A stretch of DNA of 64,000 nt from NCBI GenBank assembly GCA_036676985.1, contig JAKFBU010000077.1, positions 1-64,000 of the forward strand, written 5' to 3'. The stretch is from Candidatus Sericytochromatia bacterium. GTDB taxonomy: Bacteria; Cyanobacteriota; Sericytochromatia; S15B-MN24; UBA4093. Positions 927 through 15,913 of the stretch are shown piece after piece (within the stretch, counting starts at the first letter, position 1; each line of letters opens with the position of its first letter). The position numbers were made by a program, and so were the translations under genes. Under the pieces are notes generated by a model, which was not told the DNA's origin, searched no databases, and saw nothing but the letters and a program-made list of their open reading frames with translations.

Positions 927-1574
927 TCAGGGCGCGATGATCACCTGTCGGATGGCGATGAAGTGGCAGATGCTCGCCACGATGGTCAGGGCGTGGAAGA
1001 CCTCGTGGTAACCGAAGATGCGCGGTGCAGGGTCGGGGCGCCGGGTCGCGTAGACGACCGCGCCCACGATGTAGAGGACGCCGCCCGCGATGAGCAGCCC
1101 GTTCGCCAGGGGCGAGAGCGCGGCCGCCGTGCGTGGCAGGAAGGGAATGACCACGCATCCCAGGAGCACGTAGAAGAGAGCGGAAAGGGCCTTGGGCGCG
1201 CCGCTCCAGAAGACCGCCCGCGCTACGCCAAGCAACGCCCCGAGCCACACCCCGCCGAGCAGCATGGGGCCGACGCCGTCCCCCAGGGCCACCAGACAGA
1301 TCGGCGTGTAGGAGCCCGCAATCACCAGGAAGATGGCCGAATGATCCAGGCGCCGCATGAGCAGGCGCGCGCGTTCGCCCCACGAGGGCAGGTGGTACAG
1401 GGCGCTGATGCCGAACATGGCCGCGAGCGTCAGGGCGTAGACGGTGGCGGCGATCGCCGCCTGGTCGCTATGGGCGGCCGCCACGAGCATGGGCCCGGCC
1501 CCCAGGGAGGCGAAGAAGGCGGCGCGGTGCGAGACCCCGCGGAGCCGGGGCTTCGAAGGCGTGGTGTCCGACAT
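927..1574 (-). CDS. Hemolysin III / PAQR family membrane protein
   Basis: KPRLRGVSH, SALYH, RRLDHSAIFLVIAGSYTP and FGYHEVFH motifs; about 7 TM segments; GGAGG upstream of ATG 1574. Confidence 0.92.
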   Translation of the reverse strand: MSDTTPSKPRLRGVSHRAAFFASLGAGPMLVAAAHSDQAAIAATVYALTLAAMFGISALYHLPSWGERARLLMRRLDHSAIFLVIAGSYTPICLVALGDGVGPMLLGGVWLGALLGVARAVFWSGAPKALSALFYVLLGCVVIPFLPRTAAALSPLANGLLIAGGVLYIVGAVVYATRRPDPAPRIFGYHEVFHALTIVASICHFIAIRQVIIAP

Positions 1575-1672
1575 GCGCATGACCTCCGGTGACGCGGTTT
1601 GGGCTCCTGCCATTCTGGCAGGAAGGCGCCCGAAAGTCGGTCACCGAATGGTCATGGCGTGTCAGACTTCGG

Positions 1673-3598
1673 TCATACTCCCGAGGGGCGGGCGTCGGTC
1701 CCGGCGCTCGTTTTCATTCCGAGCTTGCGGGCGGCGCCGAGCATCTGCTTCTCGAAGGACGCGAGCAGCTGCTCGAAGAAGCCGTGCGACTCCATCATCT
1801 CGGGCACGAACGGGTTCATGATCGTGCTGCGCAGGACCGTGAGGCTCTTGCCGTCCTCGAAGAGGGGCAACAGGGACGGGTGAAGTCGCGCCCGCACGCC
1901 CCGACCGTACTTCTTGAGGTCGAACTCGGTCTTGGACAAGAGGAAGTCGTAGCTGAAGACCAGGCGGTCCAGGTTGATGGCGAAGCGCTGGTAAAGCTCC
2001 TCGTTGAACCGGTTGATCTCGGCGAGCGAGGTCGCGCCCGGCGGTATGGCGATGAAGACCACCAGGTTCAGGTCCGGATCGTTCAGGGGCACGAGCTTGA
2101 AGCCATGGGGCGAGGTGAAGCCCTTGATGGCGTCCTTCATCTGACGCGCGGAGTTCGTCGTCTGCTCGATGAGCGTGCCGAAGCCCGTGGTGTTCAGGGG
2201 CAGCACCCGGTGGTTGAGCCACACGGCGGCGGCCGCAGCGCCCGGCTTGGAGCCCTCGACGATGTACTTGCCGATGGTGGTGTGGGGGATGCCGCCTTCT
2301 TCGTGGAAGACGTAGGGCGCGGCCACCGTGAGGAACTCGCGGACCCGCACGTCCTGGAACATGATGGCCCCCGCGGGGTACGGCGCGTAGCCCAGCTTGT
2401 GCGGGTCGATGGTGATCGAGTCCGTCTCCTGCAGGGCCTGGAAGCTCCGGGCCAGCTCCATGTCGAAGGCCGACTCCATCCAGTTACCGGCCTCGTCCCG
2501 GAACATGGCGGCGGCGTAGCCGCCATAGGCCCCGTCCACGTGGCAGTAGAAGTCGAGCCCACGGGCCTTGGTCTCGCGCTTGGCCTCGAACAGGCGATGC
2601 AGGGCGTCGACCGTGCCCGTCTCGGTGGAGCCGAGCACGCTCACCATGGCGAGCACCGGCACCTTCTGGGCGACGAGCTCTTCCAGGACGGCCGCGAACT
2701 GCGCCGGGTCGATGCGGTAGTCGTCGTCGACGGCGAGCTCCAGGAGCTGGTGCTGGCCCATGCCCAGCAGGTCCGCGATCTTGACCCAGGAGTAGTGCTT
2801 GGTGCCGGGCACGAGCAAGAGCGGCTCCGGCAGGGCCTCGCCCACCATGCCCTCGAAGACCCGGTGGAAGCGCAGGTAGCCCAGGGTGCCGAGGGAGTGG
2901 GCGTTGAGCTGGTCGGTGATGCGCGGGTCCTGCTCGGCGCGGATCAAGAGCGCCTCGCGCAGCTCGCAGATGGCGTCCATGGGAACGTTCATGAGCTGCC
3001 AGGCGTCGAGGTCCTTCAGCTCGCCCACGCCGCCCTCTGCCAGGCGCACGGGCAGACCCGTGAGATCCAGGAACCTTGCGGCCATGGCCGCGTTGGGCGG
3101 GAAGTACTTGAGGGCGCGGGCCGCCCAGAGCGCCTCGAGGTTCGCAACCGAGCCGCCCGACGTGAGGTGCCCCCAGGCGTTGGGGCCGTAGCCCACCAGG
3201 TTGGCCAGCTGCCGACCCACCTCCAGCTCCAGCTCGGTGGTGACGGGCGAGGCCTCCTCCGAGATGTTGTTGGGGTTGTAGAGCATCGCCGCGAAGTAGC
3301 CCACCATGGACGCGATGGTCACGTCGGTGGTCATGTGCGCGATGTAGCGGGGGCTGAAGGACGGCGCGCCCTGCTTGAGACGCGAGAGCAGGTAGTAGAG
3401 CTCCTGGCGCAGGCGCGCCATGGAGTCGTCGTAGGTCTGGCTGCGCTTGTCGGCCTCGCGAATGAACGGGCCGTCCTGCGGGTGGAAGTTGCGGCGCCAG
3501 AAGACGTGGTCCCGGAAGGCCTCCAGGATGAACTTCTCGGCGATGTCCGCATTCTCACCGGCCGGGCCCAGGAAAGCAGAGCTGAAATTCAGAGACAT
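1673..3598 (-). CDS. Group II PLP-dependent amino-acid decarboxylase (tyrosine decarboxylase-like)
   Basis: HVDGAYGG, SITIDPHKLGYAPY (PLP lysine), GHLTSGGSVANLEALW and EGSKPGAAAAAVW motifs. Confidence 0.88.
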   Translation of the reverse strand: MSLNFSSAFLGPAGENADIAEKFILEAFRDHVFWRRNFHPQDGPFIREADKRSQTYDDSMARLRQELYYLLSRLKQGAPSFSPRYIAHMTTDVTIASMVGYFAAMLYNPNNISEEASPVTTELELEVGRQLANLVGYGPNAWGHLTSGGSVANLEALWAARALKYFPPNAAMAARFLDLTGLPVRLAEGGVGELKDLDAWQLMNVPMDAICELREALLIRAEQDPRITDQLNAHSLGTLGYLRFHRVFEGMVGEALPEPLLLVPGTKHYSWVKIADLLGMGQHQLLELAVDDDYRIDPAQFAAVLEELVAQKVPVLAMVSVLGSTETGTVDALHRLFEAKRETKARGLDFYCHVDGAYGGYAAAMFRDEAGNWMESAFDMELARSFQALQETDSITIDPHKLGYAPYPAGAIMFQDVRVREFLTVAAPYVFHEEGGIPHTTIGKYIVEGSKPGAAAAAVWLNHRVLPLNTTGFGTLIEQTTNSARQMKDAIKGFTSPHGFKLVPLNDPDLNLVVFIAIPPGATSLAEINRFNEELYQRFAINLDRLVFSYDFLLSKTEFDLKKYGRGVRARLHPSLLPLFEDGKSLTVLRSTIMNPFVPEMMESHGFFEQLLASFEKQMLGAARKLGMKTSAGTDARPSGV

Positions 3599-3664
3599 GG
3601 CGGCATTCCATTTGGATATAAGAGGGCGCCTCCTTTCTTTAGCTCATTTCCGTCCATCACGCGT

Positions 3665-3679
3665 CCGTAAGTATTACGC
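3665..3679 (-). promoter_or_regulatory. Putative activator site (CCGT-N7-ACG family) upstream of the decarboxylase
   Basis: CCGTAAGTATTACGC; on the minus strand it is followed after 23 nt by TAAAGA (3636-3641). Confidence 0.5.
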
Positions 3680-3809
3680 TTGTGCGCCCTTTGCGGGCCC
3701 AGCGAGCCGCTTTCGCCATTAGACTTCGCCAATCTTCACGCCGCAGGGTGGGTCGGTCGTGCAGACTCGGGTCCGCGCGATCCGCGAGGACCCGTGAAAG
3801 GAGGCCCCC

Positions 3810-4148
3810 ATGGCCCGTTCCTGTCGCTACCTGCGCGTCCGTCCCCGCATGCACCCGAAAGCTCGGATCCGAGCCGTCCCGGCGGCCGGGGCGGCGCCGC
3901 GGGTCCGCCTGGGATCGGGGCTGGCGATCGCCCTTTTCCTCTCCACGCTGTTCGCCGTCTCGACCATCCTCCTGCTGATCCGCTCGTGGCTGATCGACGC
4001 CCCGGCCTCCGAGGCGGACGCCATGCTCATCCTCGGAGTCGGGGGCATCACATGGTTGACGTCGCTCGGGTATTACGCGCTGTGGCAGCTAGATAAGCGA
4101 GACATACCGCCTGTTAAGCGAGAATCGCAACAAATGCGAAATGATTAG
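3810..4148 (+). CDS. Small two-TM hypothetical membrane protein
   Basis: AGGAGG RBS before the ATG; two hydrophobic segments. Confidence 0.6.
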   Translation: MARSCRYLRVRPRMHPKARIRAVPAAGAAPRVRLGSGLAIALFLSTLFAVSTILLLIRSWLIDAPASEADAMLILGVGGITWLTSLGYYALWQLDKRDIPPVKRESQQMRND

Positions 4149-4252
4149 GGGTTCCTAATCGATATGTCATTAGAAGTGACTAATTCTTTCAGAAATTGGG
4201 GGGCTGAGGGGTAAATCTCCGACAAGGGTGACATTCCCACATCGGAGGACCA

Positions 4253-5194
4253 ATGAAGAAGCTTCCTAGACAACTCCTCGGAGTGGCCGCGCTCGGCGTG
4301 GCGGCGTGCACCTCCTCGCCGTTCGGGCCGACCGCGGCCCCCAGCACGCAGTTCGGACTCGAGCTCCAGAACCTGATCAGCCTCGACAAGGCACGCGGTC
4401 ACTACGAACTCTGGGTGGTGGGCGGCGGCACCCCCAAGAGCGCTGGCAAATTCCTCATCGGCACGGACGGCAAGCCCACGGATCTCGACGGCGCGGCCAA
4501 GACCACCTGGATCGCCGAGGCCAACGCCTCCGAGATCACCGACGTCTACGTCACCCAGGAGCAGCCCGCCGACGCCGACGCCAAGCCGAGCCGGCAGCAG
4601 TTCCTCACGGGCGTCCTCAAGGCGGGCAAGGCCACGCTATCGGCTCCCGTCAACGCCGCGGACGTCCAGACCAAGACGGGCGCCTACATCCTGGACAACC
4701 CCGTCACCGAAAAGGTCGCCAACGACTACAACGGCATTTGGTACTCCACCTACAGCACCGGCAAGTACACCCCGGGGCTCACGCTTGACGAGTCCCCGGA
4801 CGGCTGGCGCTACGCGGGCTGGGTCATCCTCGGCGGCAAGGTGCTCCGCACGGGCAAGTTCACCCACCCCATGGAGATGGACGACTGGTACGGCTACTCG
4901 GGCTTCAACTCGGTGTCCTTGCCCGTCAACTTCCCCGGGCCCCCGATGCCCGGCGAGGACTTCAACGTCAATGCCCCCGAGGGCCTGACCTTCGGCAACG
5001 GCCAGCCGGACCTCGCGGGCGCGCAGGTCATCATCTCGGTCGAGAGCGCGACGCTCTCGGGCGAGGAGACCTATCCCGGCCCCGTCCGCCTCTTCGAGGG
5101 CACCGTGCCCACCCCCTCGGCCCAGCGGGTGACCTACGACCTGACCAACGTGGCGGCGACCAAGGTCCCATCCGCCACCCTCACCGTGAAGTAA
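4253..5194 (+). CDS. Hypothetical lipoprotein
   Basis: GGAGG RBS; lipobox LGVAAC; strong GC3 codon bias; 10 nt upstream of the DHOR gene. Confidence 0.85.
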   Translation: MKKLPRQLLGVAALGVAACTSSPFGPTAAPSTQFGLELQNLISLDKARGHYELWVVGGGTPKSAGKFLIGTDGKPTDLDGAAKTTWIAEANASEITDVYVTQEQPADADAKPSRQQFLTGVLKAGKATLSAPVNAADVQTKTGAYILDNPVTEKVANDYNGIWYSTYSTGKYTPGLTLDESPDGWRYAGWVILGGKVLRTGKFTHPMEMDDWYGYSGFNSVSLPVNFPGPPMPGEDFNVNAPEGLTFGNGQPDLAGAQVIISVESATLSGEETYPGPVRLFEGTVPTPSAQRVTYDLTNVAATKVPSATLTVK

Positions 5195-5204
5195 GGAGCG
5201 CCCC

Positions 5205-6458
5205 ATGCAGACCAAGCACTACCTTGCCGCCGCGGCGCTCGGCCTCTTCCTGGTGGGCTGCCAGGCCGTCACCCGGGACCTCACGGCAAGCACGCCCGGA
5301 CTTCCCGGCAACATCGGCGACGAGAGCTTCACCCGCCCGCTTTCGGGCCTGAGCGAGGCCAACCTCGCCGCGTACCACCGGGGCCGCGAGCTCTTCGACA
5401 AGAACTTCACGCCCTCGGAGGGCCTGGGCCCCCTCTACAACAACACGAGCTGCAAGGCCTGCCACGGCTTCCCCAACTCGGGCGGCAGCTCGCCGGAGCT
5501 CCTGACCCTCATCGGCGGAGAGTCGAACGGCGCGCCCCGGACCCTCAAGGAGAAGGGCGGTCCGGTCATCTCCGATAAGTCCGTGCTCAGCGTGCCCCTG
5601 GAATCCCTGCCCCTGGAGACCAAGTACATCTCCAAGCGCATCTCGCCGGTGACCTACGGAACGGGCCTCCTCGAGGCCATCCCGGCCGCCGACATCACAG
5701 CACAGCTGGCGCCCTCGGCCCGCAAGCAGGAGCTCGGCATCAGCGGGCGCACCAACCTGGACGGCGACAAGATCGGCCGCTTGGGCTGGAAGGCCCAGAC
5801 CTCCGACATGCGCTCGTTCACGATCACGGCCTCGAACTTCGAGATGGGCCTCTCGAGCCCGGATCGTCCGTACGAATTCTTCCCCAACATCGGGCCCCAG
5901 ATGCTGGCGGCTCCGGCCCTCTACGCCACCGACAGCGCCAAGCTGGCGTTCGTCAAGGAGTACTTCGACGCCCGCGGCGCGGCCTCGGCCTCGACCGATC
6001 TCACGGCCCAGAACGTCGACGACCTCACGGCCTTCCAGCGCTACCAGGCGCCGCCCGTCCCCCTGGCCCTCACCGAGCAGGCCAAGCAGGGCGAGGAGGT
6101 CTTCAAGAAGATCGGCTGCGCCGAGTGCCATGCGCCCGGCTTCAAGACGGGCCCCAACTCCATCGGCATCCCCGAGGGCCAGACGGTCGCGGCCTACACG
6201 GACCTCCTCCTGCACGACATGGGGGCTGCACTCTCGGACGGCATCGCCTGGCAGGGCACGGCCAAGGGCTCGGAGTGGCGCACGACCCCGCTCTGGGGCC
6301 TGCGCTACCGCCGCTGGCTGATGCATGACGGCCGCACGGACAACCTGGAAGAGGCCATCCAGCTGCATGCGGGCGAGGGCCAGAAGGTCACCGACGCCTA
6401 CAACGCCCTCGCGACGGTCTCCAAGGACGCCCTGAAGGCGTTCCTGCTGTCGATCTAG
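5205..6458 (+). CDS. Di-haem oxidoreductase (DHOR/DUF1111-type) lipoprotein
   Basis: Lipobox LVGC; GLGPLYN, CKACH and CAECH haem motifs, GRLGWKA, YTDLLLHDMG, WRTTPLWG and MHDGR. Confidence 0.9.
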   Translation: MQTKHYLAAAALGLFLVGCQAVTRDLTASTPGLPGNIGDESFTRPLSGLSEANLAAYHRGRELFDKNFTPSEGLGPLYNNTSCKACHGFPNSGGSSPELLTLIGGESNGAPRTLKEKGGPVISDKSVLSVPLESLPLETKYISKRISPVTYGTGLLEAIPAADITAQLAPSARKQELGISGRTNLDGDKIGRLGWKAQTSDMRSFTITASNFEMGLSSPDRPYEFFPNIGPQMLAAPALYATDSAKLAFVKEYFDARGAASASTDLTAQNVDDLTAFQRYQAPPVPLALTEQAKQGEEVFKKIGCAECHAPGFKTGPNSIGIPEGQTVAAYTDLLLHDMGAALSDGIAWQGTAKGSEWRTTPLWGLRYRRWLMHDGRTDNLEEAIQLHAGEGQKVTDAYNALATVSKDALKAFLLSI

Positions 6459-6477
6459 GCTGCGAAAGGAGCCCCTC

Positions 6478-6738
6478 ATGAATGCGCTGCTTCCGGTCCA
6501 ACCGCTGCAAGGTGCGATCGCCCGCCAGTTGCCCCTCGCCATGGGGCTGGCGATCGCCCTGAGCGTGTCCCTTGCGAGCACGCAGCTCTTGGGCGCCGTG
6601 CCGAGCCCCATGGAGGGCGCGGCCGAGGGTCCGAGCACGAGCTGCGTCGGCTGCCACACCACCGAGGTTCCCGAGGGCGCTCCGCCGGAAGCGCCCGGCG
6701 GGACCGCCATGCAGCGCCAGGCGGAGTGCCGGCGCTAA
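6478..6738 (+). CDS. 86-aa exported or membrane peptide with a single CxxCH
   Basis: AAAGGAG RBS; hydrophobic segment LAMGLAIALSVSLA followed by SCVGCHTT; fills the gap between the DHOR and radical SAM genes. Confidence 0.65.
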   Translation: MNALLPVQPLQGAIARQLPLAMGLAIALSVSLASTQLLGAVPSPMEGAAEGPSTSCVGCHTTEVPEGAPPEAPGGTAMQRQAECRR

Positions 6739-6749
6739 CAGGAGGCCCC

Positions 6750-8066
6750 ATGTCCCCTCTGCTCTCGGCGGCGGCCCTGGACGCCGCCCGGGACCGCTTC
6801 GCCCGCTCGCTGGCAGCCCCCCAGTCCCGTCACTCCTATCCCTTGCCGGCCAAGAGCCGGCTCGGCGCCCCGACGGACCTCCATGCGGCCGGCGGTCCGG
6901 CGAGCCTGTACGTGCACATCCCGTACTGCTCGGCCCGTTGCACCTACTGCTTCTTCGTGACGCAGATTGGCCACGGGGCCAAGGACATGGCCCAGTACGT
7001 GGACGAGATCGCAGCCGAGCTCGCGCTCACCGAGCCTCACCTCGGAGGCTACAGCTTCTCGTCCCTCTACTACGGCGGCGGAACCCCGGGCCTCCTGCCG
7101 CCCGACTCCTTCAAGCGCCTGCACGAGCTCTTCGCGCCTCTGCTGGCTCCCGGGGCCACCGTCACGGTCGAGACCCATCCCCACGCGGCGGACGCCCAGC
7201 GCGTCGCTGCCTGGAAGGAGTGCGGCATCGACCGGGTGAGCGTCGGGGTCCAGACCACCGATCCGCACCTGCTCGAGATCGTCAACCGGGGGTTGACCGG
7301 CCCCCACATCGTCCCGGGCATCCAGCGCCTGCTCGAGGCGGGCTTCCAGGACGTCAACGCGGACCTGCTCTTCGGGCTGCCCGACCAGACCATGGAGAGC
7401 TGGCAGGACACCCTGGAGACCCACATCGCCACGGGCATCCCCAGCCTCTCCATGTACCGCACGTCCTACATCCCGGCTACCATCGAGGCCTTCCGCAAGC
7501 TGGGCGCGACCTTCCCGGCCAAGCAGGACATTTACGCCATGTACGCCCATGGCTTCCAGCGCCTCAACGAGGCGGGCTTCCTGCAGCCCCGCTACGGCTG
7601 CTCGACCTTCAGCCGCCACGCCTACCCCTTCGGCCTCAACACCCACCGCTATCACATCCTCCAGAACCGACCGATGGTCTGCCTGGGCATGGGCGCCTAC
7701 GGCTCGGTGGGCGGCTACGTCTACCTCAACCACCGCACGCGCGAGGCCTACCAGAAGGCGCTCGCCGACAAGCAAATGCCCGTGCTCGCGGCCACGCCCG
7801 TGGACCCCGAAGAGGTGCCCCACAAGTACGCGGTCGAGACCTGGAAGCTCGGCTTCTTGAGCCAGGGGGCCTACCACGAGCGGTTCGGAGAGATGGTCGA
7901 GGACCGCTTCGGCGCGGAGCTCGCCGTGCTCTTGGAGCTCGGAGAGCTGGAGCTGGTGGACCGCGAGTACCGCATGACCCGCCGGGGCGCCGAGCACCCG
8001 GACGTGATCGCCGACATGTTCGTGAGCGCGGCGGCCCACGCCTACGCCCAAGGAGGACGCGCATGA
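6750..8066 (+). CDS. HemN-like (class C) radical SAM enzyme
   Basis: SLYVHIPYCSARCTYC (CxxxCxxC), SLYYGGGTP, RVSVGVQT and NADLLFGLPDQT; AGGAGG RBS before ATG 6750. Confidence 0.9.
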   Translation: MSPLLSAAALDAARDRFARSLAAPQSRHSYPLPAKSRLGAPTDLHAAGGPASLYVHIPYCSARCTYCFFVTQIGHGAKDMAQYVDEIAAELALTEPHLGGYSFSSLYYGGGTPGLLPPDSFKRLHELFAPLLAPGATVTVETHPHAADAQRVAAWKECGIDRVSVGVQTTDPHLLEIVNRGLTGPHIVPGIQRLLEAGFQDVNADLLFGLPDQTMESWQDTLETHIATGIPSLSMYRTSYIPATIEAFRKLGATFPAKQDIYAMYAHGFQRLNEAGFLQPRYGCSTFSRHAYPFGLNTHRYHILQNRPMVCLGMGAYGSVGGYVYLNHRTREAYQKALADKQMPVLAATPVDPEEVPHKYAVETWKLGFLSQGAYHERFGEMVEDRFGAELAVLLELGELELVDREYRMTRRGAEHPDVIADMFVSAAAHAYAQGGRA

Positions 8067-8899
8067 CCCCCCCTCTCACCTTTCCCGAGGCCTACCGCCG
8101 GTACATGGCGGCCTTCGGCACGCCCGACCTGGACGAGATCGCGGCCGTCGGCGTCAAGTTCGTCAAGCGCGGGGAGACGCCGCCGCCCCAGGCGGCCCCG
8201 CTCGACATGGCCTACACCTGGTGCTATGCCGTCAAGCAGGCCTCCAGGGGCGAGGTGCCCCTGCTCACGCGGGACAACATCGGCTGCGTGATGGCGGCCA
8301 TCGCGCTCGGCCTGGTGGACGAGGACGACCCCAACCCGCTGCCCGGCTGGCGGCAGTACAGCCAGAAGATGGAGACGCCACCCGCGCCGCGGGACTACAA
8401 GGAGGGGCTCGTCTTCGGCTGCGCGGCGGCCGGTCGCCAGGACCTCGCCCTCTACGGCCCCGACGACCCGGGACGCTACCGCACCGTCGAGGCCGCGAAG
8501 AAGGCCTATGCCGGCATGCCCAAGATCCAGCCCGCCTGCATGGACGCGGTGGTGGCCTTCCCGCCCGAAGAGGAGCTCGCCGACATCACGCCGGACGTCG
8601 TGATCCTGGCCCTGACGCCGCGCGAGACGCTGCGCACCATCCAGTCTTTGACCTTCATGAGCGGCGAGCGCTTCGAGATGACCACCCTCGGGGTGGCGGG
8701 CTTCTCGGTGGACCTCACAGCACTGCCCTACGTGACGGGCAAGGCCAACGCGAGCTTCATGTGCGTGGGCGCCCGGGTGGTGGCTCGCTGGGACGGCAAC
8801 CTCAACGCCATGGGCCTTCCCTACGAGACCTTCCTCCAGGTGGTCGAGGGGATGGAGCTCTCGGCCCCGGGGTATCCATTTGCGAGGTACCCCGCATGA
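8063..8899 (+). CDS. DUF169 (COG2043)-like protein
   Basis: True start at an ATGA overlap with the radical SAM stop; WCYAVKQA-RG, IGCVMAAIALG, PDVVI..TP and PY..G..NASFMCVGAR match the DUF169 pattern as I recall it. Confidence 0.75.
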   Translation: MTPPLTFPEAYRRYMAAFGTPDLDEIAAVGVKFVKRGETPPPQAAPLDMAYTWCYAVKQASRGEVPLLTRDNIGCVMAAIALGLVDEDDPNPLPGWRQYSQKMETPPAPRDYKEGLVFGCAAAGRQDLALYGPDDPGRYRTVEAAKKAYAGMPKIQPACMDAVVAFPPEEELADITPDVVILALTPRETLRTIQSLTFMSGERFEMTTLGVAGFSVDLTALPYVTGKANASFMCVGARVVARWDGNLNAMGLPYETFLQVVEGMELSAPGYPFARYPA

Positions 8900-10299
8900 G
8901 CCGCGCGCGCCTCTACCTCGACCACGCGGCGACCTCGCCCCTGCGTCCCCGGGCGCGCGAGGCCATGGAGAGCGCCTGGCGCTGGAGCTACGGCAACTCG
9001 GCCAGTCAGCACACCGAGGGCCGTGAGGCTCGCCTGACCCTCGCCCAGGCCCGAGCCCAGGTGGCGGCCTTGGTGGGCGTCGCACCGGAGGGCGTCGTCT
9101 TCACCTCGGGCGCCACCGAGGCCACCAACCTGGCGGTCAGGGGCGCGGCCTACGCGCGGCGCTCGGAGCACCGGAGCGTCGTGTCGACGCGCCTGGAGCA
9201 CTCGGCCACCCTCAAGGCCTGCGAGGCCCTCGCCAACGAGGGCTGGGGCGTGAGCCTCCTGCCCTCCGATCGGAACGGGCGGGTCTCGGCGAGCGACCTT
9301 GCGCGGGTGCTGGAGCCGGGCACCGCCGTGGTCTCGGTGATCGCGGGCCACAACGAGCTCGGCACCGTCCAGGATCTCGTGGCCCTCGCGGAAGCGGCGC
9401 ACGCCGGAGGAGCCCTGTTTCACCTGGATGCCGTGCAGGCGGTCGGACACCTGGACCTGTCCCAGGTGCCGTGGGACCTGCTCTCCCTGTCTGCCCACAA
9501 GCTCGGCGGACCTCAGGGGATCGGCGCACTGGTCATGCGCGGCTCGCCGGCCCTGCGGCCGGTGCTCGTCGGGGGCGCCCAGGAGGGCGGCCTGCGGCCC
9601 GGGACCGTGCCCGTGGCGCTCGCGGCGGGCTTCGGCGCAGCCGCCGAGGAGGTGCGCCACCATCGCGGAGCGGAGGGAGCACGGCTTGCGGCCCTGCGCG
9701 ATCGCCTCGGCGCCCTCTTGAGAGAGCGGCGGCCGGACCTCTTGCCCATGGGCATGTGGGCCCACGACGCGAGCCAGGCGCTGCCGCACATCCTCGCGCT
9801 CGGGATCCCGGGCGTGAAGGGCGACGAGCTGGTCCATGCCCTGGACGAGCTGGGCGTGGCGGGCGCGTCGTCCTCGGCATGCCTGTCGGGGACGCGATCG
9901 CACGTGCTGGAGGCCGTCGGGCTCCCCGAGCACATCGGCGTCATGCGCCTGTCCCTCGGCTGGGACACCACGGAGCGGGAAATCGACACGGCGGCCAAGC
10001 GGATCGGCAAGGCCCTGGAGCATCTCATGTCCCTGGCGCCCTTCGAGCGGCGCCGAGGGCTCATCGCGCAGCGCGCCAAGGAGGCGGGAATCGTGCTCAC
10101 GCAGGCTCACTGGGAGGCGACCGAGGCGGTCTTCTCCTACCATCACGACGAGGGAATCCTCCCCGGGCCGCGCCACCTGGCGCGCGCCTTGGGCGCGGGC
10201 GTCACCCTCGATCAGCTCTTCCCCCGGGGGATCGCGACCATCGCGAGCTGGCTCGGCATCCCCACTCCCCAGGGCGGTTGCCGCCCTTACGCAGGGTGA
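8896..10299 (+). CDS. IscS/NifS-type cysteine desulfurase fused to a C-terminal TusE/DsrC-like domain
   Basis: ATGA overlap start; YLDHAATSP, FTSGATEATN, HLDAVQ, SAHK, RPGT and SSSSAC329; C-terminal GIVLTQAHWE...LFPRG...LGIPTPQGGC. Confidence 0.88.
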   Translation: MSRARLYLDHAATSPLRPRAREAMESAWRWSYGNSASQHTEGREARLTLAQARAQVAALVGVAPEGVVFTSGATEATNLAVRGAAYARRSEHRSVVSTRLEHSATLKACEALANEGWGVSLLPSDRNGRVSASDLARVLEPGTAVVSVIAGHNELGTVQDLVALAEAAHAGGALFHLDAVQAVGHLDLSQVPWDLLSLSAHKLGGPQGIGALVMRGSPALRPVLVGGAQEGGLRPGTVPVALAAGFGAAAEEVRHHRGAEGARLAALRDRLGALLRERRPDLLPMGMWAHDASQALPHILALGIPGVKGDELVHALDELGVAGASSSACLSGTRSHVLEAVGLPEHIGVMRLSLGWDTTEREIDTAAKRIGKALEHLMSLAPFERRRGLIAQRAKEAGIVLTQAHWEATEAVFSYHHDEGILPGPRHLARALGAGVTLDQLFPRGIATIASWLGIPTPQGGCRPYAG

Positions 10300-10766
10300 G
10301 CCCCGTGTTGTCGCCCGGACATGGGGCGAGCCTCGCCACGACGGCGGGCATCACGTCGGTCATCACCATGGTCATGGCGGCCTCGGTCTTGGGGCAGTGC
10401 AACGGCCTCACGGGAGCGGCCCAGACGCTCGCGGCCGGGACCTTGCTCGCGCTGGTGCTCGGGGCGGGGTTGCTCTACTCGGCCCGCGAGGCCATCGGCA
10501 CGGCCATGGACGTGGGGCCCGGCGATCCGACGGCCTTCCGGGCGCTCGCCGGCAAGGGCCTCGCCTCCTACCACTTCGGCAAGGCGTGCCTCTTCCTGGG
10601 GCTGGCATGCGGGATCGCATGGCGCGTGGCCCTGCCGCACGGCGAGCTCGCGTGGCTCGGGGTGCTGGGGGCCGTCGGGTTCTCCTTGGGAGCGGCTGCG
10701 CGCGGTGCGCGCTACATGGGGCCGGCGGGGTCGGGGCTGGCTCAGTCCGCCGCGCCGAAGCAGTAG
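10296..10766 (+). CDS. Four-TM hypothetical membrane protein
   Basis: GTGA overlap with the desulfurase stop; corresponds to the C-terminal part of ORF 9471..10766 and has four hydrophobic segments. Confidence 0.7.
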   Translation: MSPVLSPGHGASLATTAGITSVITMVMAASVLGQCNGLTGAAQTLAAGTLLALVLGAGLLYSAREAIGTAMDVGPGDPTAFRALAGKGLASYHFGKACLFLGLACGIAWRVALPHGELAWLGVLGAVGFSLGAAARGARYMGPAGSGLAQSAAPKQ

Positions 10767-11401
10767 CCCTTGCCGCGGATGGTCTGGATCCACGGCGCGC
10801 CCACCCGGTTGAGCTTGCGCCGCAGGTAGGTCACGTACACGTCCACGATGTTGGTGCCCGTGTCGAACGGCATGCTCCAGACGTCGGCAGCGAGGGTCTC
10901 ACGGGGGAGGATGGCCTCGGGGTGATGCATGAAGTAGGAAAGCAGCTCGAACTCGCGGTTCGTCAGGGCGACGCTCCGGCCGGCGCGCTCCACGGTGCGC
11001 TTGAACATGTCCAGGCGCAGGTCCCCGTAGGTCATGGTGCGGCTGAGCCGGCGGATCACAGCGCGCATGCGCTCGATCAGCTCGTCGTAGGGGATGGGCT
11101 TCTGGATGTAGTCGTCCGCTCCGCAGCGCAGGCAGCGGATGCGCCCGGGCGAATCGGCCTCGCTCGAGATCATGATGACGTAGGGGCTCGCCCCCGAGTT
11201 GAGCATCGAGCGGCAGGCGCCGAGGCCTTGCAGGCAGGTGAGCTCATCGTTCATCAGGCCGACCTGGTAGGTGTTGAGCCGGGCGAGCTCGATGGCGCGA
11301 TCGCTCTCGATCACGGCATCCACCGAGTGTCCGTCCGTCTCCAGGTCCTGCTTCAAGCGCAGGACCAGCTCCCGGTCATCGTCTGCCAACAACACTCGCA
11401 T
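10742..11401 (-). CDS. OmpR/PhoB-family response regulator with an atypical receiver domain
   Basis: MRVLLADDD, GADDYIQKP, LTNREFELL, NIVDVYVTYLRRKL and IQTIRGKGY. Confidence 0.9.
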   Translation of the reverse strand: MRVLLADDDRELVLRLKQDLETDGHSVDAVIESDRAIELARLNTYQVGLMNDELTCLQGLGACRSMLNSGASPYVIMISSEADSPGRIRCLRCGADDYIQKPIPYDELIERMRAVIRRLSRTMTYGDLRLDMFKRTVERAGRSVALTNREFELLSYFMHHPEAILPRETLAADVWSMPFDTGTNIVDVYVTYLRRKLNRVGAPWIQTIRGKGYCFGAAD

Positions 11402-11515
11402 GAGCACCCTCCATTGGCTGCGGTCACGTCGCTTCATAACGCACCCTATCAAGCCTGCCGCCCCGAGTCTTTGAGCGTGCTCATATTAGATACCGCTAAT
11501 TCTGTGTCTTGTAAT

Positions 11516-11559
11516 GAGCAGAAATTACGGTAGGCCGTCGTTTCTTGCTTGATTAGCAT
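11516..11559 (+). promoter_or_regulatory. Putative activator site plus -10 box
   Basis: GAGCAGAAATTACGG-N23-TAGCAT upstream of the YD-repeat gene. Confidence 0.45.
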
Positions 11560-11584
11560 GTCCTAACATCAGGAGGTACGTCAG

Positions 11585-12397
11585 ATGTCCGACCCCGTCA
11601 CCATTGGCGTTATCCCGGCTCCCGACGAGCTGCTCTCCCAGATCAAGGCCTCTGTCCAGAGCGTCAAATCTTTCCAATCGGGCCGGGTGAACAAGTACGG
11701 CAAGGTGGAGGGCGTCCGGGAGTATCCGGCGGCTCAGGCGCCCTTCGAGCGCCAGGATCATCACATGGACGCCAAGGGGCGGGTCGTCTACCTCGAAAAG
11801 TTCACGCGCGACTTCTCCAAGCCCACCATGCGCTGTTACCGCTATGAGGACGCCACGAGCGCCCTGACCGAGGCCATCTGGCTCGATCGCTACGGCCGGA
11901 TCGAGAACTACCACCGGTATCGCTACGACGAGATGACGGGCCTCTTGGTCTGGCGCGCCGAGTACGACCACGAGGGCAACCTCTTCTACTCCATCCAGTC
12001 GCGCTACGACGCCAAGAACCAGCTCGTCGACGAGACCTGGTTCGACCCCAAGAACCGCTTCATGAAGCGCTATGCCTACTCCTACGATGCCAAGGGCGAG
12101 CTCATCGGCGAGCTGCACTACGACAGCCGCAACGTCCTGACGGGCATCAACCGCTTCAAGTACGACGCCAAGGGCAACCTGCTCGAGCGCAAGTGGTGCG
12201 ACCCCGCGGACAAGGTCATGAGCCGCTTCGAGTACAGCGTGGATCACGAAGGGCGCGTCCTCGCGATGAAGCTCTACGGACCGGGCGGAAAGGTCCAGAT
12301 ACGCCAGGAGTTCGCTTACGACGGCAAGAATAACGTGGTCCGAGAAAAGTGGTTCGATGACAAAGGAACGCTCGTCAAGGATCTCCGGTACTCGTGA
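11585..12397 (+). CDS. Short YD-repeat (RHS-repeat-like) protein
   Basis: Tandem ~23-aa units such as YRYDEMTG, YDHEGN, YDAKNQ, YSYDAKGE, FKYDAKGN and FAYDGKNN; AGGAGG RBS. Confidence 0.85.
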   Translation: MSDPVTIGVIPAPDELLSQIKASVQSVKSFQSGRVNKYGKVEGVREYPAAQAPFERQDHHMDAKGRVVYLEKFTRDFSKPTMRCYRYEDATSALTEAIWLDRYGRIENYHRYRYDEMTGLLVWRAEYDHEGNLFYSIQSRYDAKNQLVDETWFDPKNRFMKRYAYSYDAKGELIGELHYDSRNVLTGINRFKYDAKGNLLERKWCDPADKVMSRFEYSVDHEGRVLAMKLYGPGGKVQIRQEFAYDGKNNVVREKWFDDKGTLVKDLRYS

Positions 12398-12542: not shown

Positions 12543-13760
12543 ATGGGCATGGGCGGAGTAGGCAACACCACTCAACCAATCATACCGAGACCGGGCACCT
12601 CGACGGGCGCCACGGGGGCCTCGGAGGGAACTGCTGGTACCACCACGGGCGCACCCGCGGGAGCCGCGGGCGATACGTCTCATGTCGGCGGGGCGGGCGA
12701 GTCGTCGGGCATGGAGCTGTTCCAGGCCCAGGACGTCACCAAGGACGTCGCGCCGCCCTTGCGTCCGCCCGAGCAGATCCGGGCGGACGACTCGCAGGAC
12801 GTGAAGCCGATGGATCCTCCCAAGGATCTCGAGCCCACGCCGCCTCGCACCGAGCCCTCGCAGGAGACGCGCCCGCCCGAAAAGGTCTCGTACTCCGAGC
12901 CGCCTGCGCCGCCCGAGCTGGAGAAGGTCATCGAGGTGGCCGGCAGCGGCATGGGCGCCGACAAGAAGTTCAAGATGTATCCCTCGGAGCTCGCGGCCAT
13001 CTACGCCATCCTCAAGGAGAATGGCGGCAACATGTCGCTCGAGGAGATGCAGAAGAAGCTCAAGACGTACTACGGCATCGACACCGAGATCAAGAACGGG
13101 ACGCTCGTCAACACGGCGAACGGCAACGCCATGATCTCGGACACCAACGGCAACGGCTCGCTCGACATGGGCGACTTGAACTTCGGCGAGGCGCTGAAGG
13201 CCGCGGGCATCGATCCGGCGAGCATCCCCAAGCCGGGCGACATGATGGCCATGATGAGCAACGTGGCCCACTGGGCGACCTACTGGGCCAACGAGCTCGA
13301 GAAGAATGTCAAGGAGATGAACCGTCCGGCGGACGCGGGCCCGGCCCCCTCGAGCCCCGCTCCGGCGGGTCCGTCCAACGCGACCAAGTCGGCCATGGTC
13401 GGCGGGACGCGCCTGGCGGACGACAAGCTCGTCACGGTCAAGGGCAACGATCGCCAGTTCACCATGCACCTGAGCGAGCTCGCGGCCATGTACGCGATCT
13501 TGAAGAAGCAGGACAAGCCCATCGCCGTCGAGGACCTGCAGAAGCAGCTCAAGCAGGGCTTCGGCATCGACTGCGACATCAAGAACATCGACGGGCAGCA
13601 GACGCTGGTCAACAAGGCCACGGGGCACGCGCTCATCTCCGACACCAACGGCTCGGGGATGATCGATCCCAAGGACCTGGAGTTCGAGAAGGCGCTGCGC
13701 GACAACGGAGTCGATCCCGAAAAGATCGTCCCCAAGCAGGCGGAAGCCACGATCGGATAG
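12543..13760 (+). CDS. Hypothetical protein with a low-complexity N-terminus and two homologous domains carrying EF-hand/dockerin-like loops
   Basis: Duplicated SELAA(I/M)YAILK...GID..IKN...TLVN...ISDTNG(N/S)G..D..DL.F..AL...G(I/V)DP; AGGAGG RBS. Confidence 0.85.
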   Translation: MGMGGVGNTTQPIIPRPGTSTGATGASEGTAGTTTGAPAGAAGDTSHVGGAGESSGMELFQAQDVTKDVAPPLRPPEQIRADDSQDVKPMDPPKDLEPTPPRTEPSQETRPPEKVSYSEPPAPPELEKVIEVAGSGMGADKKFKMYPSELAAIYAILKENGGNMSLEEMQKKLKTYYGIDTEIKNGTLVNTANGNAMISDTNGNGSLDMGDLNFGEALKAAGIDPASIPKPGDMMAMMSNVAHWATYWANELEKNVKEMNRPADAGPAPSSPAPAGPSNATKSAMVGGTRLADDKLVTVKGNDRQFTMHLSELAAMYAILKKQDKPIAVEDLQKQLKQGFGIDCDIKNIDGQQTLVNKATGHALISDTNGSGMIDPKDLEFEKALRDNGVDPEKIVPKQAEATIG

Positions 13761-13766
13761 GAGACC

Positions 13767-14030
13767 ATGGACCAGCTCTTGACCAAGCAGGAAGTCGCCG
13801 AGCGCGTCTCGCGCCTCAACCAGCTCGTGGCTCGCGAGTACGAGTTGCAGGAGCGATTGCTCGGCCTCAAGTTCCACGGCGCTCGCGACCACGTCGAGGA
13901 GGCCAAGAAGCAGCATGAGGAGACGATCCAGGAGATCGATCGCCTGCGTCACCAGGAGATGCTGCCGATCGTCAAGGAACTGAACGACTTCATCACCGCG
14001 GCCAAGGCCAAGCTGGGCAGGTCGTCATGA
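13767..14030 (+). CDS. Small coiled-coil hypothetical protein
   Basis: 87 aa, helical and charged; 6 nt after the upstream stop; ATGA overlap with the radical SAM gene. Confidence 0.8.
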   Translation: MDQLLTKQEVAERVSRLNQLVAREYELQERLLGLKFHGARDHVEEAKKQHEETIQEIDRLRHQEMLPIVKELNDFITAAKAKLGRSS

Positions 14031-15913
14031 CCGATCGGACGAGTCACGAGGAGGCCGGGACGTCCCGGCCTCCCAAGGTATTGCTGGTATTCGCCCCGCA
14101 GTGGTCCCCTCAGAACCCGCACTATTCCATGCGGGCCATCATGGGCCACCTGCGCCACCAGGGCATCCAGGTGGCGGTGCGGGATCTCAACGTCGAGTTC
14201 TACGACACGGTCCTGAGCCCCGAGTACCTGCGCCGGACCGCGGCCAAGGTGCGCCTCGCGCACAAGTACCTGGGTCATGTGAGCGCGCTCCGGATGCTGA
14301 GCGGCGACGATTCCATCGACGCGCGGATGGACGCCCTCCGCTTCGGGGCCATCAAGACCTACCTGGAGGAGAAGGAGCCCCTCCTCGACGAGCTGCCGCG
14401 GATCATCCTGGACGCCAAGGAGACGCTCAAGGACCCGCGCCGCTTCTACAACCCGGACCTCCTGATCGAGGCCTTCACCACCATCGACTGGGCCCTGGAG
14501 CTCGTCTCCCTGCCCTACACGCCCGCCTACCTCTCCTTCAACTACTTCGAGCAGCCGGACTGCCGCCTCAACGTCAAGAGCCTCATCGAGCACGCGACGA
14601 ACAAGAAGAACAACCTCTACTACGAGTTCTTCGAGGAGCAGATCGAGGGGCTGCTGGCCGAGGGCGCGGACTACATCGGCATCTCGATCAACGCCTTCTC
14701 GCAGGTGGTGCCGGGCCTGACGCTCGCCTACCTCTTGAAGCAGGCGGCCCCTCCGGGCATGCACGTGGGCATCGGCGGCAACTTCTTCGCGCGGGTCAAG
14801 AACGTGCTCGCCGAGCGCCCCGAGTTCTTCCGGACCTTCGCGCACAGCCTCGCCTGCGGGGAGGGCGAGCACCAGGTCACCTTGATGGCGCGCGCCCTGC
14901 ACGAGGGGCGATCGCTCGACGAGGTCCCCAACCTCCTCTATCTGTCGGAGGACGGCCAGACGGTGCACGTGACGCCGGAGGCCGAGGCGCCGCCGATGAA
15001 CGACATCGGCATCCAGGACCTGGAAGGCCTGCCGCTCGACAAGTACATGACCCCGGAGCTGGTCCTGACCATCCAGGCGAGCAAGGGCTGCTACTGGGGG
15101 GCCTGCACCTTCTGCGACACGGACTTCGGCATCCGCGTCGACCAGAAGTCCATCGACCGCCTGGTGGCCGAGATGAAGCACCTGCGCGATCGCTACGGGG
15201 TGAAGCACTTCCAGTTCGTGGACGAGGCCATCCGTCCGGTCTACATGCGGCGCATGGCCAAGACCTTCATCGAGGAAGAGCTGAACGTCCACTGGTTCTG
15301 CAACGGCCGGCTGGAGAAGGCGATCAACGCCGAACTCTTGCAGCTCTTGCACGACTCGGGCCTGCGCATGGTGCTCTGGGGCTTCGAGTCGGGCTCGGAG
15401 CGGATCCTCGAGCTCATCAAGAAGGGCATCGACGCCGAGCGCCGCTACGATATCCTGCAGGGTGCCAACGCCGCGGGCATCTGGAACTTCGCCTACATCT
15501 TCTTCGGCTTCCCCTCGGAGACGCTCGACGAGGCGCGCTCGACCATCGACGCCATCTGCCGGAACACGGACATCATCCATTCCTACGGGCGGTCGGTGTT
15601 CACGCTGGGTAAACAGAGCCCGTTGTTCCTGGAGGCGGCGGCGCACGGCATCGTAGACGTGATGGAGGATCTCGAGGAGCTGTCCACGAACCTGCATTAC
15701 CGGACGACGCTCGGGATGGACAACCGGGAGCTGACGCAGGTGCTCAAGGAGTGCACCCAGCGCTGCAGCGAGGCCTACGGCTACAACCTGTGGTTCTTCC
15801 TGCGCTACCGCGAGAACATCCACCTCTACGTGGCCAAGTACGGGCTGGAGTTCGTCAAGGACTACAAGATGTCCCGCTACGTCATTCCCAAGACGTGCGA
15901 AGAAGTCTTTTAG
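14027..15913 (+). CDS. B12-binding-domain radical SAM enzyme (class B-like)
   Basis: ASKGCYWGACTFC, YIGISIN, VGIGGN, GEGE, FQFVDEAI, WGFESGSERIL and FFGFPSET. Confidence 0.9.
   Translation: MTDRTSHEEAGTSRPPKVLLVFAPQWSPQNPHYSMRAIMGHLRHQGIQVAVRDLNVEFYDTVLSPEYLRRTAAKVRLAHKYLGHVSALRMLSGDDSIDARMDALRFGAIKTYLEEKEPLLDELPRIILDAKETLKDPRRFYNPDLLIEAFTTIDWALELVSLPYTPAYLSFNYFEQPDCRLNVKSLIEHATNKKNNLYYEFFEEQIEGLLAEGADYIGISINAFSQVVPGLTLAYLLKQAAPPGMHVGIGGNFFARVKNVLAERPEFFRTFAHSLACGEGEHQVTLMARALHEGRSLDEVPNLLYLSEDGQTVHVTPEAEAPPMNDIGIQDLEGLPLDKYMTPELVLTIQASKGCYWGACTFCDTDFGIRVDQKSIDRLVAEMKHLRDRYGVKHFQFVDEAIRPVYMRRMAKTFIEEELNVHWFCNGRLEKAINAELLQLLHDSGLRMVLWGFESGSERILELIKKGIDAERRYDILQGANAAGIWNFAYIFFGFPSETLDEARSTIDAICRNTDIIHSYGRSVFTLGKQSPLFLEAAAHGIVDVMEDLEELSTNLHYRTTLGMDNRELTQVLKECTQRCSEAYGYNLWFFLRYRENIHLYVAKYGLEFVKDYKMSRYVIPKTCEEVF

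Follow-up and report, generated by a model that had tools for sequence, protein, structure and literature searches.

An operon of seven co-oriented genes was analysed at positions 4253-10766 (+ strand) of a stretch of 64,000 nt from a Candidatus Sericytochromatia bacterium (contig JAKFBU010000077.1, assembly GCA_036676985.1), the whole of which is called the window below. The operon was read as a modular one, with a dedicated persulfide relay to a DUF169 protein at its core, to which a lineage-specific radical S-adenosylmethionine (SAM) enzyme and a small membrane protein have been added, and this reading was judged to have an even chance of being right. It was based on the observed gene order, protein families and conservation, on the two orders in which a cysteine desulfurase and a TusE/DsrC-like carrier were found to be fused, on a separate clade of the radical SAM enzymes and on a docking predicted by a complex model. 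The genes of the operon, together with the two domains of the desulfurase fusion, were as follows (ORF, open reading frame).

4253-5194, + strand: lipoprotein, 313 aa, no Pfam or NCBIfam family
5205-6458, + strand: DHOR (formerly DUF1111) di-haem enzyme, 417 aa (PF06537)
6478-6738, + strand: ORF of 86 aa with a CVGCH motif, no family
6750-8066, + strand: HemN-superfamily radical SAM enzyme, 438 aa, type A (PF04055)
8063-8899, + strand: DUF169 protein, 278 aa (PF02596)
8896-10299, + strand: desulfurase fusion, 467 aa, whole gene (Aminotran_5 and DsrC-like)
8896-10032, + strand: class I cysteine desulfurase domain of the fusion (PF00266 and motifs)
10033-10299, + strand: TusE/DsrC-like domain of the fusion (PF04358 and a profile match to solved DsrC/TusE)
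10296-10766, + strand: small membrane protein, 156 aa (by hydropathy), no Pfam or NCBIfam family

All seven ORFs were open at these positions. The first four genes were spaced by 10 nt (lipoprotein/DHOR), 19 nt (DHOR/86-aa ORF) and 11 nt (86-aa ORF/radical SAM), and the remaining junctions were three 4-nt overlaps, with ATGA for radical SAM/DUF169 and DUF169/fusion and GTGA for fusion/membrane protein. A purine-rich GGAG-type stretch was located within 20 nt 5' of the start of each of the first five genes (lipoprotein through DUF169); none was present in the 20 nt 5' of the starts of the fusion and membrane-protein genes, both of which overlap the preceding stop. The original prediction, which had been made from the sequence alone and had described seven co-oriented genes with short gaps or overlaps, was confirmed in all ORFs and junctions, and its family calls were correct by Pfam and NCBIfam.

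The N-terminal part of the fusion was matched by Aminotran_5 (PF00266) over residues 7-364 with 201 bits, and the best match to a cysteine desulfurase in the PDB was at 2.2e-74. SAHK at residues 199-202 and SSSAC at residues 325-329, which we take to be the motif of the lysine that binds pyridoxal 5'-phosphate (PLP) and the motif of the catalytic cysteine on the mobile loop, respectively, were aligned with the same motifs of the solved desulfurase. With the Aminotran_5 fold, the PLP lysine and the loop cysteine, the fusion was assigned to the class I (NifS/IscS-type) desulfurases, its scores for NifS (TIGR03402, 307.3 bits) and IscS (TIGR02006, 250.2 bits) being below the respective cut-offs of 530.75 and 643.2. 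Four desulfurase paralogues were found in the same genome besides the fusion, which is therefore the fifth.

The DsrC-like domain was recognized at residues 391-460 of the fusion, with 25.0 bits for PF04358 (cut-off 24.9) and 18.2 bits for TIGR03342 (cut-off 53.5), and covered positions 27-105 of the 107 positions of the PF04358 profile, about the first quarter of the model being missing. Seven residues were invariant among 16 DsrC-like domains from both fusion orders, and one of them was a cysteine (16/16), namely Cys83 of the domain or Cys462 of the fusion, in the motif GIP-x(4)-GGCRP in the window and GIP...C(R/K)P overall. The profile of these 16 domains matched solved DsrC/TusE chains, the best being 2xsj_C (3e-8). 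In true DsrC, a second conserved cysteine lies about 10 residues upstream of the cysteine of the C-terminal arm; because no second invariant cysteine was present, the domain was regarded as TusE-like rather than as DsrC proper. Among 1.84 billion cluster representatives, just 24 were found with this domain at E<=1e-10, and the best of them included full-length proteins of both fusion orders.

The protein encoded between the radical SAM enzyme and the fusion was matched by PF02596 over residues 28-263 with 113.5 bits (cut-off 27) and was single-copy in its own genome. DUF169 (COG2043) is widespread in archaea and anaerobic bacteria and is not known to have an assigned function. In the DUF169 alignment, Cys54, Cys75 and Cys234 were invariant and Cys120 was kept in at least 90% of the sequences. 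A structure model was obtained with a predicted local distance difference test (pLDDT) value of 92.8, and no fold was assigned by comparing it with the PDB by Foldseek (best E 0.27) or with 48,161 chains by VIA-align (best Z 4.7, with weak thiolase/ketosynthase-like rows); nor did a profile search of PDB sequences return anything under E 0.6. The search for longer, fused forms of DUF169 returned none, which is weak evidence. DUF169 is proposed to be the sulfur acceptor of the relay.

When the DsrC-like domain and DUF169 were modelled as a complex, an interface score (ipSAE, interaction prediction score from aligned errors) of 0.74 was obtained (runs at 0.74, 0.72 and 0.77), and the best of three controls reached 0.00. 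Of 80 solved complexes, 58 attained the mark of 0.74, as did 2 of 110 mismatched pairs; these counts hold only roughly here because own alignments were used for the complex model. At least 51% of the contacts were in common between the runs, and the pLDDT of the partner was at least 91. On the DUF169 side, the predicted interface was formed by residues 45-65, 96-101 and 241-242 and adjoined the invariant Cys54, Tyr99/Met103 and the C234-x-G-A-R238 motif; the carrier contributed residues 40-48, 66-68, 71 and 77-79. The model predicts that the TusE/DsrC-like domain binds DUF169 at the face bearing its conserved cysteines.

The pair of DUF169 and fusion was also found far from the window. A genome scan for DUF169 gave 64 loci, all of which, except the two Sericytochromatia-type ones, were 35-48% identical in DUF169 and came from ANME-1 and ANME-2 (anaerobic methanotrophic) archaea, seep sulfate reducers, Electrothrix, SAR324, Anaerolineae and Desulfarculia. 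In 10 of the 64 loci (L022, L034, L039, L043, L044, L046, L047, L050, L054 and L060), DUF169 was followed, at a spacing of -4 to +18 nt, by a single desulfurase/DsrC ORF of 472-516 aa (472-498 aa in nine loci and about 516 aa in L044). These ten loci were labelled SAR324, Thermodesulfobacteriota, Deltaproteobacteria, Syntrophus and Chloroflexi/Anaerolineae. In the nine distant ORFs inspected, the DsrC-like domain was N-terminal and the desulfurase domain C-terminal, which is the reverse of the window, and the two fusion orders were placed on separate long branches of a quick DUF169 tree. The same two domains are thus fused in both orders in different phyla, each time beside DUF169. No radical SAM match was found in the ten distant pair loci, and their other neighbours varied from locus to locus; when orthologues of the radical SAM enzyme were looked for in five of the distant pair genomes, HemN-family proteins of 25-33% identity were the best obtained.

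Among closer relatives, a DUF169 search returned 56 proteins, mostly 65-91% identical, one of which was labelled Candidatus Sericytochromatia. Related loci were taken from a genome collection (L001 and L002), from metagenomes (L071-L076) and from genomes of the same order (L069 and L070); since their match statistics were identical, L069 was treated as a repeat of L001 and L070 as a repeat of L073. Nine distinct cassettes were counted, that of the window included. The order radical SAM - DUF169 - fusion was kept in all seven related loci with room upstream (L072 begins at DUF169), and the membrane-protein gene was located 3' of the fusion in all five loci extending beyond the fusion, plus L077, a contig of the L001 genome which starts inside the fusion gene and was therefore taken to continue L001. 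Co-occurrence in other genomes, on which the original prediction had staked its claim, was thereby found. By the identity of their radical SAM enzymes to that of the window, the cassettes were divided into type A (54-67%; L001, L071 and L073, with the window) and type B (32-35%; L002, L074, L075 and L076). When 201 genomes of the phylum were sampled, DUF169 of the window type was present in 3, which belong to a single order; the window's own family is represented by nine other genomes, none of which has it. Only in the Sericytochromatia-type lineage is the DUF169/fusion pair joined by the radical SAM enzyme and the membrane protein. Most of these loci are metagenome bins, several of the counts rest on short contigs, and the DUF169 tree and the radical SAM tree were both quick searches.

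Upstream of the type B cassette of L076, two ORFs of 491 aa with the same nested-ORF pattern (1588-3063 and 5686-7161, - strand) were observed, which may represent a mobile element present twice; the ORF adjoining that cassette looks like a membrane-protein remnant.

The radical SAM enzyme of the window was matched by PF04055 with 77.9 bits (cut-off 29.5) and carries the CxxxCxxC motif (CSARCTYC) at residue 60 of the 438-aa form. The start was set at ATG 6750, because a database protein of 100% identity is also of 438 aa. HemN_C (PF06969) was not matched in the window enzyme at E<=0.01; in the precomputed Pfam data, the type A relatives had PF04055 alone, and most of the distant HemN/HemW matches also had PF06969. 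The best NCBIfam model was STM4012 (NF006067, cut-off 380), with 178 bits for the window enzyme and 197-201 bits for the type B enzymes. For ChuW/HutW (TIGR04107, cut-off 400) the respective scores were 160.6 and 199-200 bits, and the window enzyme reached 143.9 bits for HemW (TIGR00539, cut-off 205.4) and 132.4 bits for HemN (TIGR00538, cut-off 324.95), for which the authentic HemN of L071 reached 546.5 bits; no NCBIfam cut-off was reached by the window enzyme. The best matches in the PDB were HemN 1olt (4.6e-25) and NocN 9p2u (8.6e-19). A quick tree was built from 29 rows, and the eight rows of type A and the four of type B formed one clade in it, with a support of 99 in the Shimodaira-Hasegawa-like approximate likelihood ratio test (SH-aLRT), apart from a HemN clade of nine rows and from two of three HemW-named rows; the remaining one (P0100) was on a long branch beside the A+B clade, where its placement was not resolved, and reference sequences of ChuW, STM4012 and class C methyltransferases were outside this tree. 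Database identities fell from 19 proteins at 54% or more (among them a fragment and the copy of the query itself) to 32 proteins at 34% or less. The cassette enzymes are, by sequence, a new HemN-like clade within the radical SAM enzymes, and the original prediction, which would have been given up if the enzyme had grouped with authentic HemN or HemW, was upheld on this point. Two further HemN-family genes, 28% identical to the operon enzyme, were found in the same genome; together with the four other desulfurase paralogues, they mark the operon copies as extra, dedicated ones.

An authentic HemN gene (546 bits, cut-off 325) was located in L071 at 13482-14876 (- strand), about 1.3 kb 3' of the cassette and beyond a response regulator; the window was without a HemN gene at the equivalent place.

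The chemistry that follows, in all its steps, is what we infer from these data, as are the product and the part played by DUF169 as acceptor. The desulfurase domain would take sulfur from L-cysteine onto its loop cysteine as a persulfide, and the sulfur would pass from there to Cys462, the arm cysteine of the TusE/DsrC-like domain in the same protein. This domain would then dock on DUF169 and give the sulfur to Cys54, Cys75 and Cys234. The radical SAM enzyme, whose gene is translationally coupled to that of DUF169, would use the DUF169-bound sulfur, or would act on a substrate bound to DUF169, and a sulfur-containing product would be formed. As a first guess, the substrate may be of the tetrapyrrole type, because tetrapyrroles are bound or acted on by all of the best-scoring characterised relatives of the enzyme. 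The membrane protein and the exported proteins encoded at the 5' end of the operon (lipoprotein, DHOR and CxxCH protein) may receive the product or respond to it. A more specific version, in which DUF169 is a sulfur-donating scaffold serving the HemN-type radical SAM enzyme in trans, so that a tetrapyrrole or another cofactor is given a C-S bond by the two jointly, is tentative and was given a low probability.

The original prediction had assumed one dedicated pathway for all seven genes; its sulfur part, with a relay ending at DUF169, was the best supported, and the genes themselves proved to be modular. They are not an indivisible unit, since the radical SAM gene is missing from the ten distant pair loci and the lipoprotein-DHOR pair also stands alone.

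No Pfam or NCBIfam family was matched by the lipoprotein. Its homologues have lipobox-like signals, an Atlas feature search pointed to RskA_C clusters (0.96, as a lead only), and its structure model (pLDDT 79) was all-beta with two beta-sandwich domains, for which generic beta-sandwich matches alone were obtained among solved folds. The DHOR protein was matched by PF06537 with 149.8 bits (cut-off 22), with CxxCH at residues 83 and 305, and was single-copy in its own genome; assignments to MbnH (TIGR04039, 17.9 bits, cut-off 362.85) and MauG (TIGR03791, 16 bits, cut-off 443.85) were rejected. The DHOR gene was directly 3' of the lipoprotein gene in L071, L073, L077, L090, L092 and L093. This pair adjoined all four type A cassettes, being upstream of the cassette in the window and L071 and downstream of the membrane-protein gene in L073 and in L001 as continued by L077. 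A neighbourhood kept through such a rearrangement argues for a real link between pair and cassette, with the caveat that the four loci are kin. In L090, L092 and L093 the pair was without a cassette gene within the approximately 1.5 kb seen on each side, and DUF169 was not matched in two of the genomes concerned (G103 and G100). Among 27 genomes of the order, a lipoprotein homologue was detected in 5. As to type B, no such pair was located within about 8 kb on either side of the L076 cassette, and no lipoprotein homologue was found in the L002 genome (3.1 Mb, completeness unstated). The lipoprotein-DHOR pair is therefore an autonomous unit, a separate module accompanying type A cassettes. A second lipoprotein paralogue, 38% identical, was observed in the same genome outside the window (C77:104223-105110), with no DHOR gene in the approximately 1.5 kb seen on each side.

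In the 86-aa ORF, for which no Pfam or NCBIfam family was found, a hydrophobic N-terminal stretch (residues 14-42, a signal or an anchor) is followed by one CVGCH and a Pro-rich tail, and these features make a small exported protein with haem c the probable product. A small CVGCH ORF was directly 5' of the radical SAM gene in three of the four type A cassettes (window, L071 and L001); it was not found in L073, nor in type B, where the search covered L002, L074 and L076, L075 having almost no sequence upstream of its radical SAM gene. The lipoprotein-DHOR pair and the CxxCH protein would form an exported module, tied to the type A cassette through common regulation or physiology, and would not be enzymes of the relay pathway.

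By a crude hydropathy scan, three clear hydrophobic stretches and possibly a fourth were found in the 156-aa membrane protein, which was matched by none of the Pfam or NCBIfam families. Its homologues share an N-terminal motif and have no cysteine in common, and they were encoded 3' of the fusion in L002, L071, L072, L073, L076 and L077.

Signalling genes were observed beside most relatives of this DUF169, which the original prediction had not anticipated. In 36 of the 64 scored loci (window included), a same-strand gene of a signalling cluster was located within 250 bp of DUF169; the desulfurase fusion was present in 13 of the 64, four of them also with a signalling gene, and neither neighbour was present in 19, many of which are short contigs. 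The signalling cluster is a BLAST single-linkage group, of which nine members, together with one FIST protein, were checked by Pfam. The ten neighbours so checked were four PocR-sensor proteins (three with histidine-kinase domains), PAS/HAMP and FIST proteins, a fusion of response regulator, NMT1_2 and CheW, an NMT1_2 protein and two further kinases. The association of DUF169 with signalling is strong across L003-L064. In ANME archaea and seep sulfate reducers, PocR-sensor histidine kinases and PAS/GAF/FIST/STAS proteins were encoded directly 5' or 3' of DUF169 (for example, L005:10872-12428, L018:7322-9172, L019:1199-5203 and L037:10832-12841). In Chloroflexi, a gene of the signalling cluster was directly 5' of DUF169 and the reversed fusion (L046:8024-9988, L054:8014-9978, L050:6977-8887 and L060:8068-9978), that of L046 being the fusion of response regulator, NMT1_2 and CheW by Pfam. 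A DUF169 gene of Desulfovibrio alaskensis G20 is described in PMC4001038 as clustered with TauE-like and PtxB-like proteins and a histidine kinase, and mutants of this cluster as gaining fitness with nitrate.

Several findings weigh against a relay to DUF169 that serves the radical SAM enzyme. The module was seldom encountered (3 of the 201 genomes sampled, 24 DsrC-like cluster representatives), and from the single sequence the TusE/DsrC assignment is borderline for PF04358 and below the cut-off for TIGR03342. In the complex model, the arm cysteine (domain residue 83) was outside the confident interface residues, with 77-79 inside. Since 36 of the 64 loci have DUF169 beside signalling genes, sulfur supply is not the universal context of this DUF169 subfamily. 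Finally, the distant pairs without radical SAM indicate that the pair works without it, so that the link between radical SAM chemistry and sulfur is one which we only infer.

Because of the signalling context of DUF169, the strongest rival is that DUF169 is a redox, Fe-S or persulfide-sensing protein in signal transduction, the fusion only building, repairing or charging its cysteine site, and that the operon senses or controls a sulfur or redox state and makes no product. This was considered unlikely, at about one chance in five. It would explain the neighbours counted above, among them PocR-sensor kinases and PAS/HAMP, FIST, NMT1_2 and CheW-type proteins, as well as the four Chloroflexi loci which hold both a signalling gene and the desulfurase fusion, and it agrees with the three invariant cysteines of DUF169 and the nearly invariant fourth. 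The DUF169 gene of D. alaskensis G20, in a nitrate-fitness cluster with a histidine kinase (PMC4001038), also fits. The operon is faced by a convergent response regulator in the window and L071, but this gene was kept in L071 alone, and the window operon itself is without a kinase. The signalling count, moreover, rests on the single-linkage group described above, and the dedicated radical SAM gene with its 4-nt overlap is left unexplained. Fe-S scaffolds are not known to be supplied, as a rule, through a carrier of the TusE/DsrC type. A function in haem or iron handling was considered improbable. Here the radical SAM enzyme would be a HemW-like chaperone or a ChuW-like anaerobic haem degrader, acting for the exported DHOR and CxxCH proteins or in iron salvage, and the desulfurase would feed Fe-S assembly with the iron set free. 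The best-scoring characterised families do act on tetrapyrroles (ChuW/HutW 161, HemW 144 and HemN 132 bits), the best solved relative is HemN, the lipoprotein-DHOR pair lies beside all four type A cassettes (two upstream and two downstream), and an authentic HemN is encoded about 1.3 kb downstream of the L071 cassette; DUF1111/DHOR is also placed in iron-uptake operons in PMC3143127 and bioRxiv 10.1101/072470. All family scores were, however, far under the cut-offs, and HemN_C was not detected. Type B cassettes were without haem proteins (in L076, over about 8 kb on each side) or, in the L002 genome (completeness unstated), without a lipoprotein homologue, the lipoprotein-DHOR pair was found in three loci without an adjacent cassette (about 1.5 kb seen on each side), and DUF169 and the DsrC-like carrier would be left unexplained.

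The original prediction had also offered the CxxCH peptide as a target of modification, which was not sustained. That the 86-aa ORF is a precursor of a ribosomally synthesized and post-translationally modified peptide (RiPP), modified by the radical SAM enzyme and the sulfur relay, was regarded as very improbable. Its place directly 5' of the radical SAM gene, seen in the window and L071 and, despite a downstream DHOR pair, also in L001, would suit a precursor, but such an ORF was found in three of four type A and none of three type B loci searched, which speaks against a RiPP maturase. Owing to its export-type hydrophobic N-terminus, it is a poor substrate candidate for a cytoplasmic radical SAM enzyme; CxxCH is the attachment motif of haem c, so that a plain small cytochrome suffices, and no RiPP recognition element, protease or exporter was among the Pfam/NCBIfam matches of the operon. 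Chance packing of unrelated neighbour genes, with which the differing genes outside the cassette would agree, is hardly credible and already contradicted by the three 4-nt overlaps, by the order kept in all related loci with room and by the DUF169/fusion pair kept across phyla in two fusion orders.

The relay proposed for the operon was compared with known systems. In the IscS-TusA-TusBCD-TusE-MnmA system, persulfide sulfur is relayed for the 2-thiouridine of tRNA. As there, a class I desulfurase would load the persulfide, which would be carried by the single arm cysteine of a TusE/DsrC-fold carrier to a final acceptor; unlike there, desulfurase and carrier are one polypeptide, the carrier is without about the first quarter of the DsrC model, no TusA, TusBCD or MnmA was among the Pfam/NCBIfam matches of the operon, and the acceptor would be DUF169, which has no solved-fold match. 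The operon relay works like IscS-TusE-type sulfur trafficking without being a member of that system. With DsrC and its partners DsrAB and DsrMK, it shares a domain homologous to solved DsrC chains (2xsj_C, 3e-8), but this domain has one invariant cysteine where authentic DsrC has two, and no dsrAB or dsrMK was among the operon matches. No IscU, SufE/SufU or SufBCD was matched by any of the seven operon proteins in Pfam or NCBIfam, so that Isc and Suf were not recognized.

The radical SAM enzyme has its core and CxxxCxxC in common with HemN, HemW, ChuW/HutW and the class C methyltransferases (NocN), but it is below all NCBIfam cut-offs, has no HemN_C, forms a separate clade with its sister type B and is encoded next to DUF169 in all loci seen. 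In molybdenum cofactor (Moco) sulfurase, a NifS-like domain is fused to a cofactor-binding acceptor domain, and IscS-FdhD is a further sulfur route. The likeness, a desulfurase joined to a sulfur-receiving partner, is one of analogy only. No MOSC or FdhD domain was found in the operon, and a molybdopterin oxidoreductase was found beside DUF169 in only one of the ten distant pair loci. In that locus (L039:386-2404, SAR324), the oxidoreductase gene ends 25 nt before DUF169, which may hint at cofactor sulfuration. The 5' part of the operon resembles the imelysin/EfeO-DUF1111 operons and MbnP-MbnH in that a gene for a periplasmic partner directly precedes the gene of a di-haem DHOR/MauG-type protein (PMC3143127); the partner, however, is a lipoprotein with two sandwiches, like RskA_C, and not an imelysin, and the MbnH score was 17.9 bits against 363. 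The operons in which DUF1111/DHOR stands beside imelysin/EfeO-like proteins are described as iron-uptake operons in PMC3143127 and bioRxiv 10.1101/072470. In a literature search on DUF169/COG2043, desulfurase-DsrC fusions and Sericytochromatia radical SAM enzymes, nothing was found on this combination, with supplements lying outside the search and possibly holding more on the G20 cluster.

By this locus, DUF169 is given a concrete partner, namely a desulfurase fused to a TusE/DsrC-like carrier, found in both orders and predicted to dock on its cysteine face. If DUF169 accepts persulfide sulfur, it would be a new end-point of bacterial sulfur trafficking. If, further, it is a scaffold, the operon would provide a route to a sulfur-modified cofactor made by no known pathway, and the DUF169 family would be a general sulfur hand-over platform for radical SAM and other enzymes. 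Since the module is rare, its ecological weight is probably small. The idea of a methylthio-F430 product, taken from the ANME matches, was dropped, the DUF169 subfamily occurring in bacteria of several phyla. Selenium may be handled in place of sulfur; nothing selenium-specific was found within the operon, and a SelD match (387 bits, over the cut-off) with one in-frame TGA was found in the same genome outside the window (C26:280471-281394), which by sequence may be selenocysteine-containing.

The flanks of the operon contained the following features.

927-1613, - strand: haemolysin-III-family membrane protein, upstream flank
1673-3598, - strand: PLP-dependent decarboxylase, 641 aa, divergent from the operon
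4143-4160, no strand: perfect palindrome GATTAGG-N4-CCTAATC (7+4+7) in the AT-rich gap 5' of the operon
10742-11452, - strand: OmpR-type response regulator (Response_reg and Trans_reg_C), convergent, overlapping the operon end by 25 nt

The response regulator was found at the equivalent place in L071 alone among 10 loci compared and was regarded as a neighbour and not as a conserved part. The GC content was 0.61-0.74 across the first 16 kb of the window, with an AT-rich gap between the divergent decarboxylase gene and the operon. Two matches to the palindrome in this gap were found in the window at up to 2 mismatches, against 0.09 expected, and GATTAG/CTAAT half-sites were present in the equivalent gap of L071 (about 6130-6155); by sequence, it is a candidate operator. 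No Rfam match was found at E<=1 within 3400-11700, and in a promoter/terminator scan of 3500-11700 the counts were not above those of shuffled sequence, with no convincing terminator inside the operon. Among the RNA data sets listed, none containing 4100-10900 was found. The decarboxylase gene was syntenic with L071:4033-6015, and the long + strand ORFs opposite 927-3598, which gave no family matches, are probably shadows.

A second, unrelated radical SAM gene of the B12-binding type (628 aa) was located in the window at 14027-15913, the best model for which was that of the RiPP maturation radical SAM C-methyltransferases (121 bits, cut-off 282). It is preceded by an ORF of 87 aa (13767-14030), charged and helical-looking, and also by an ORF of 405 aa with a weak winged-helix match (region 12543-15913).

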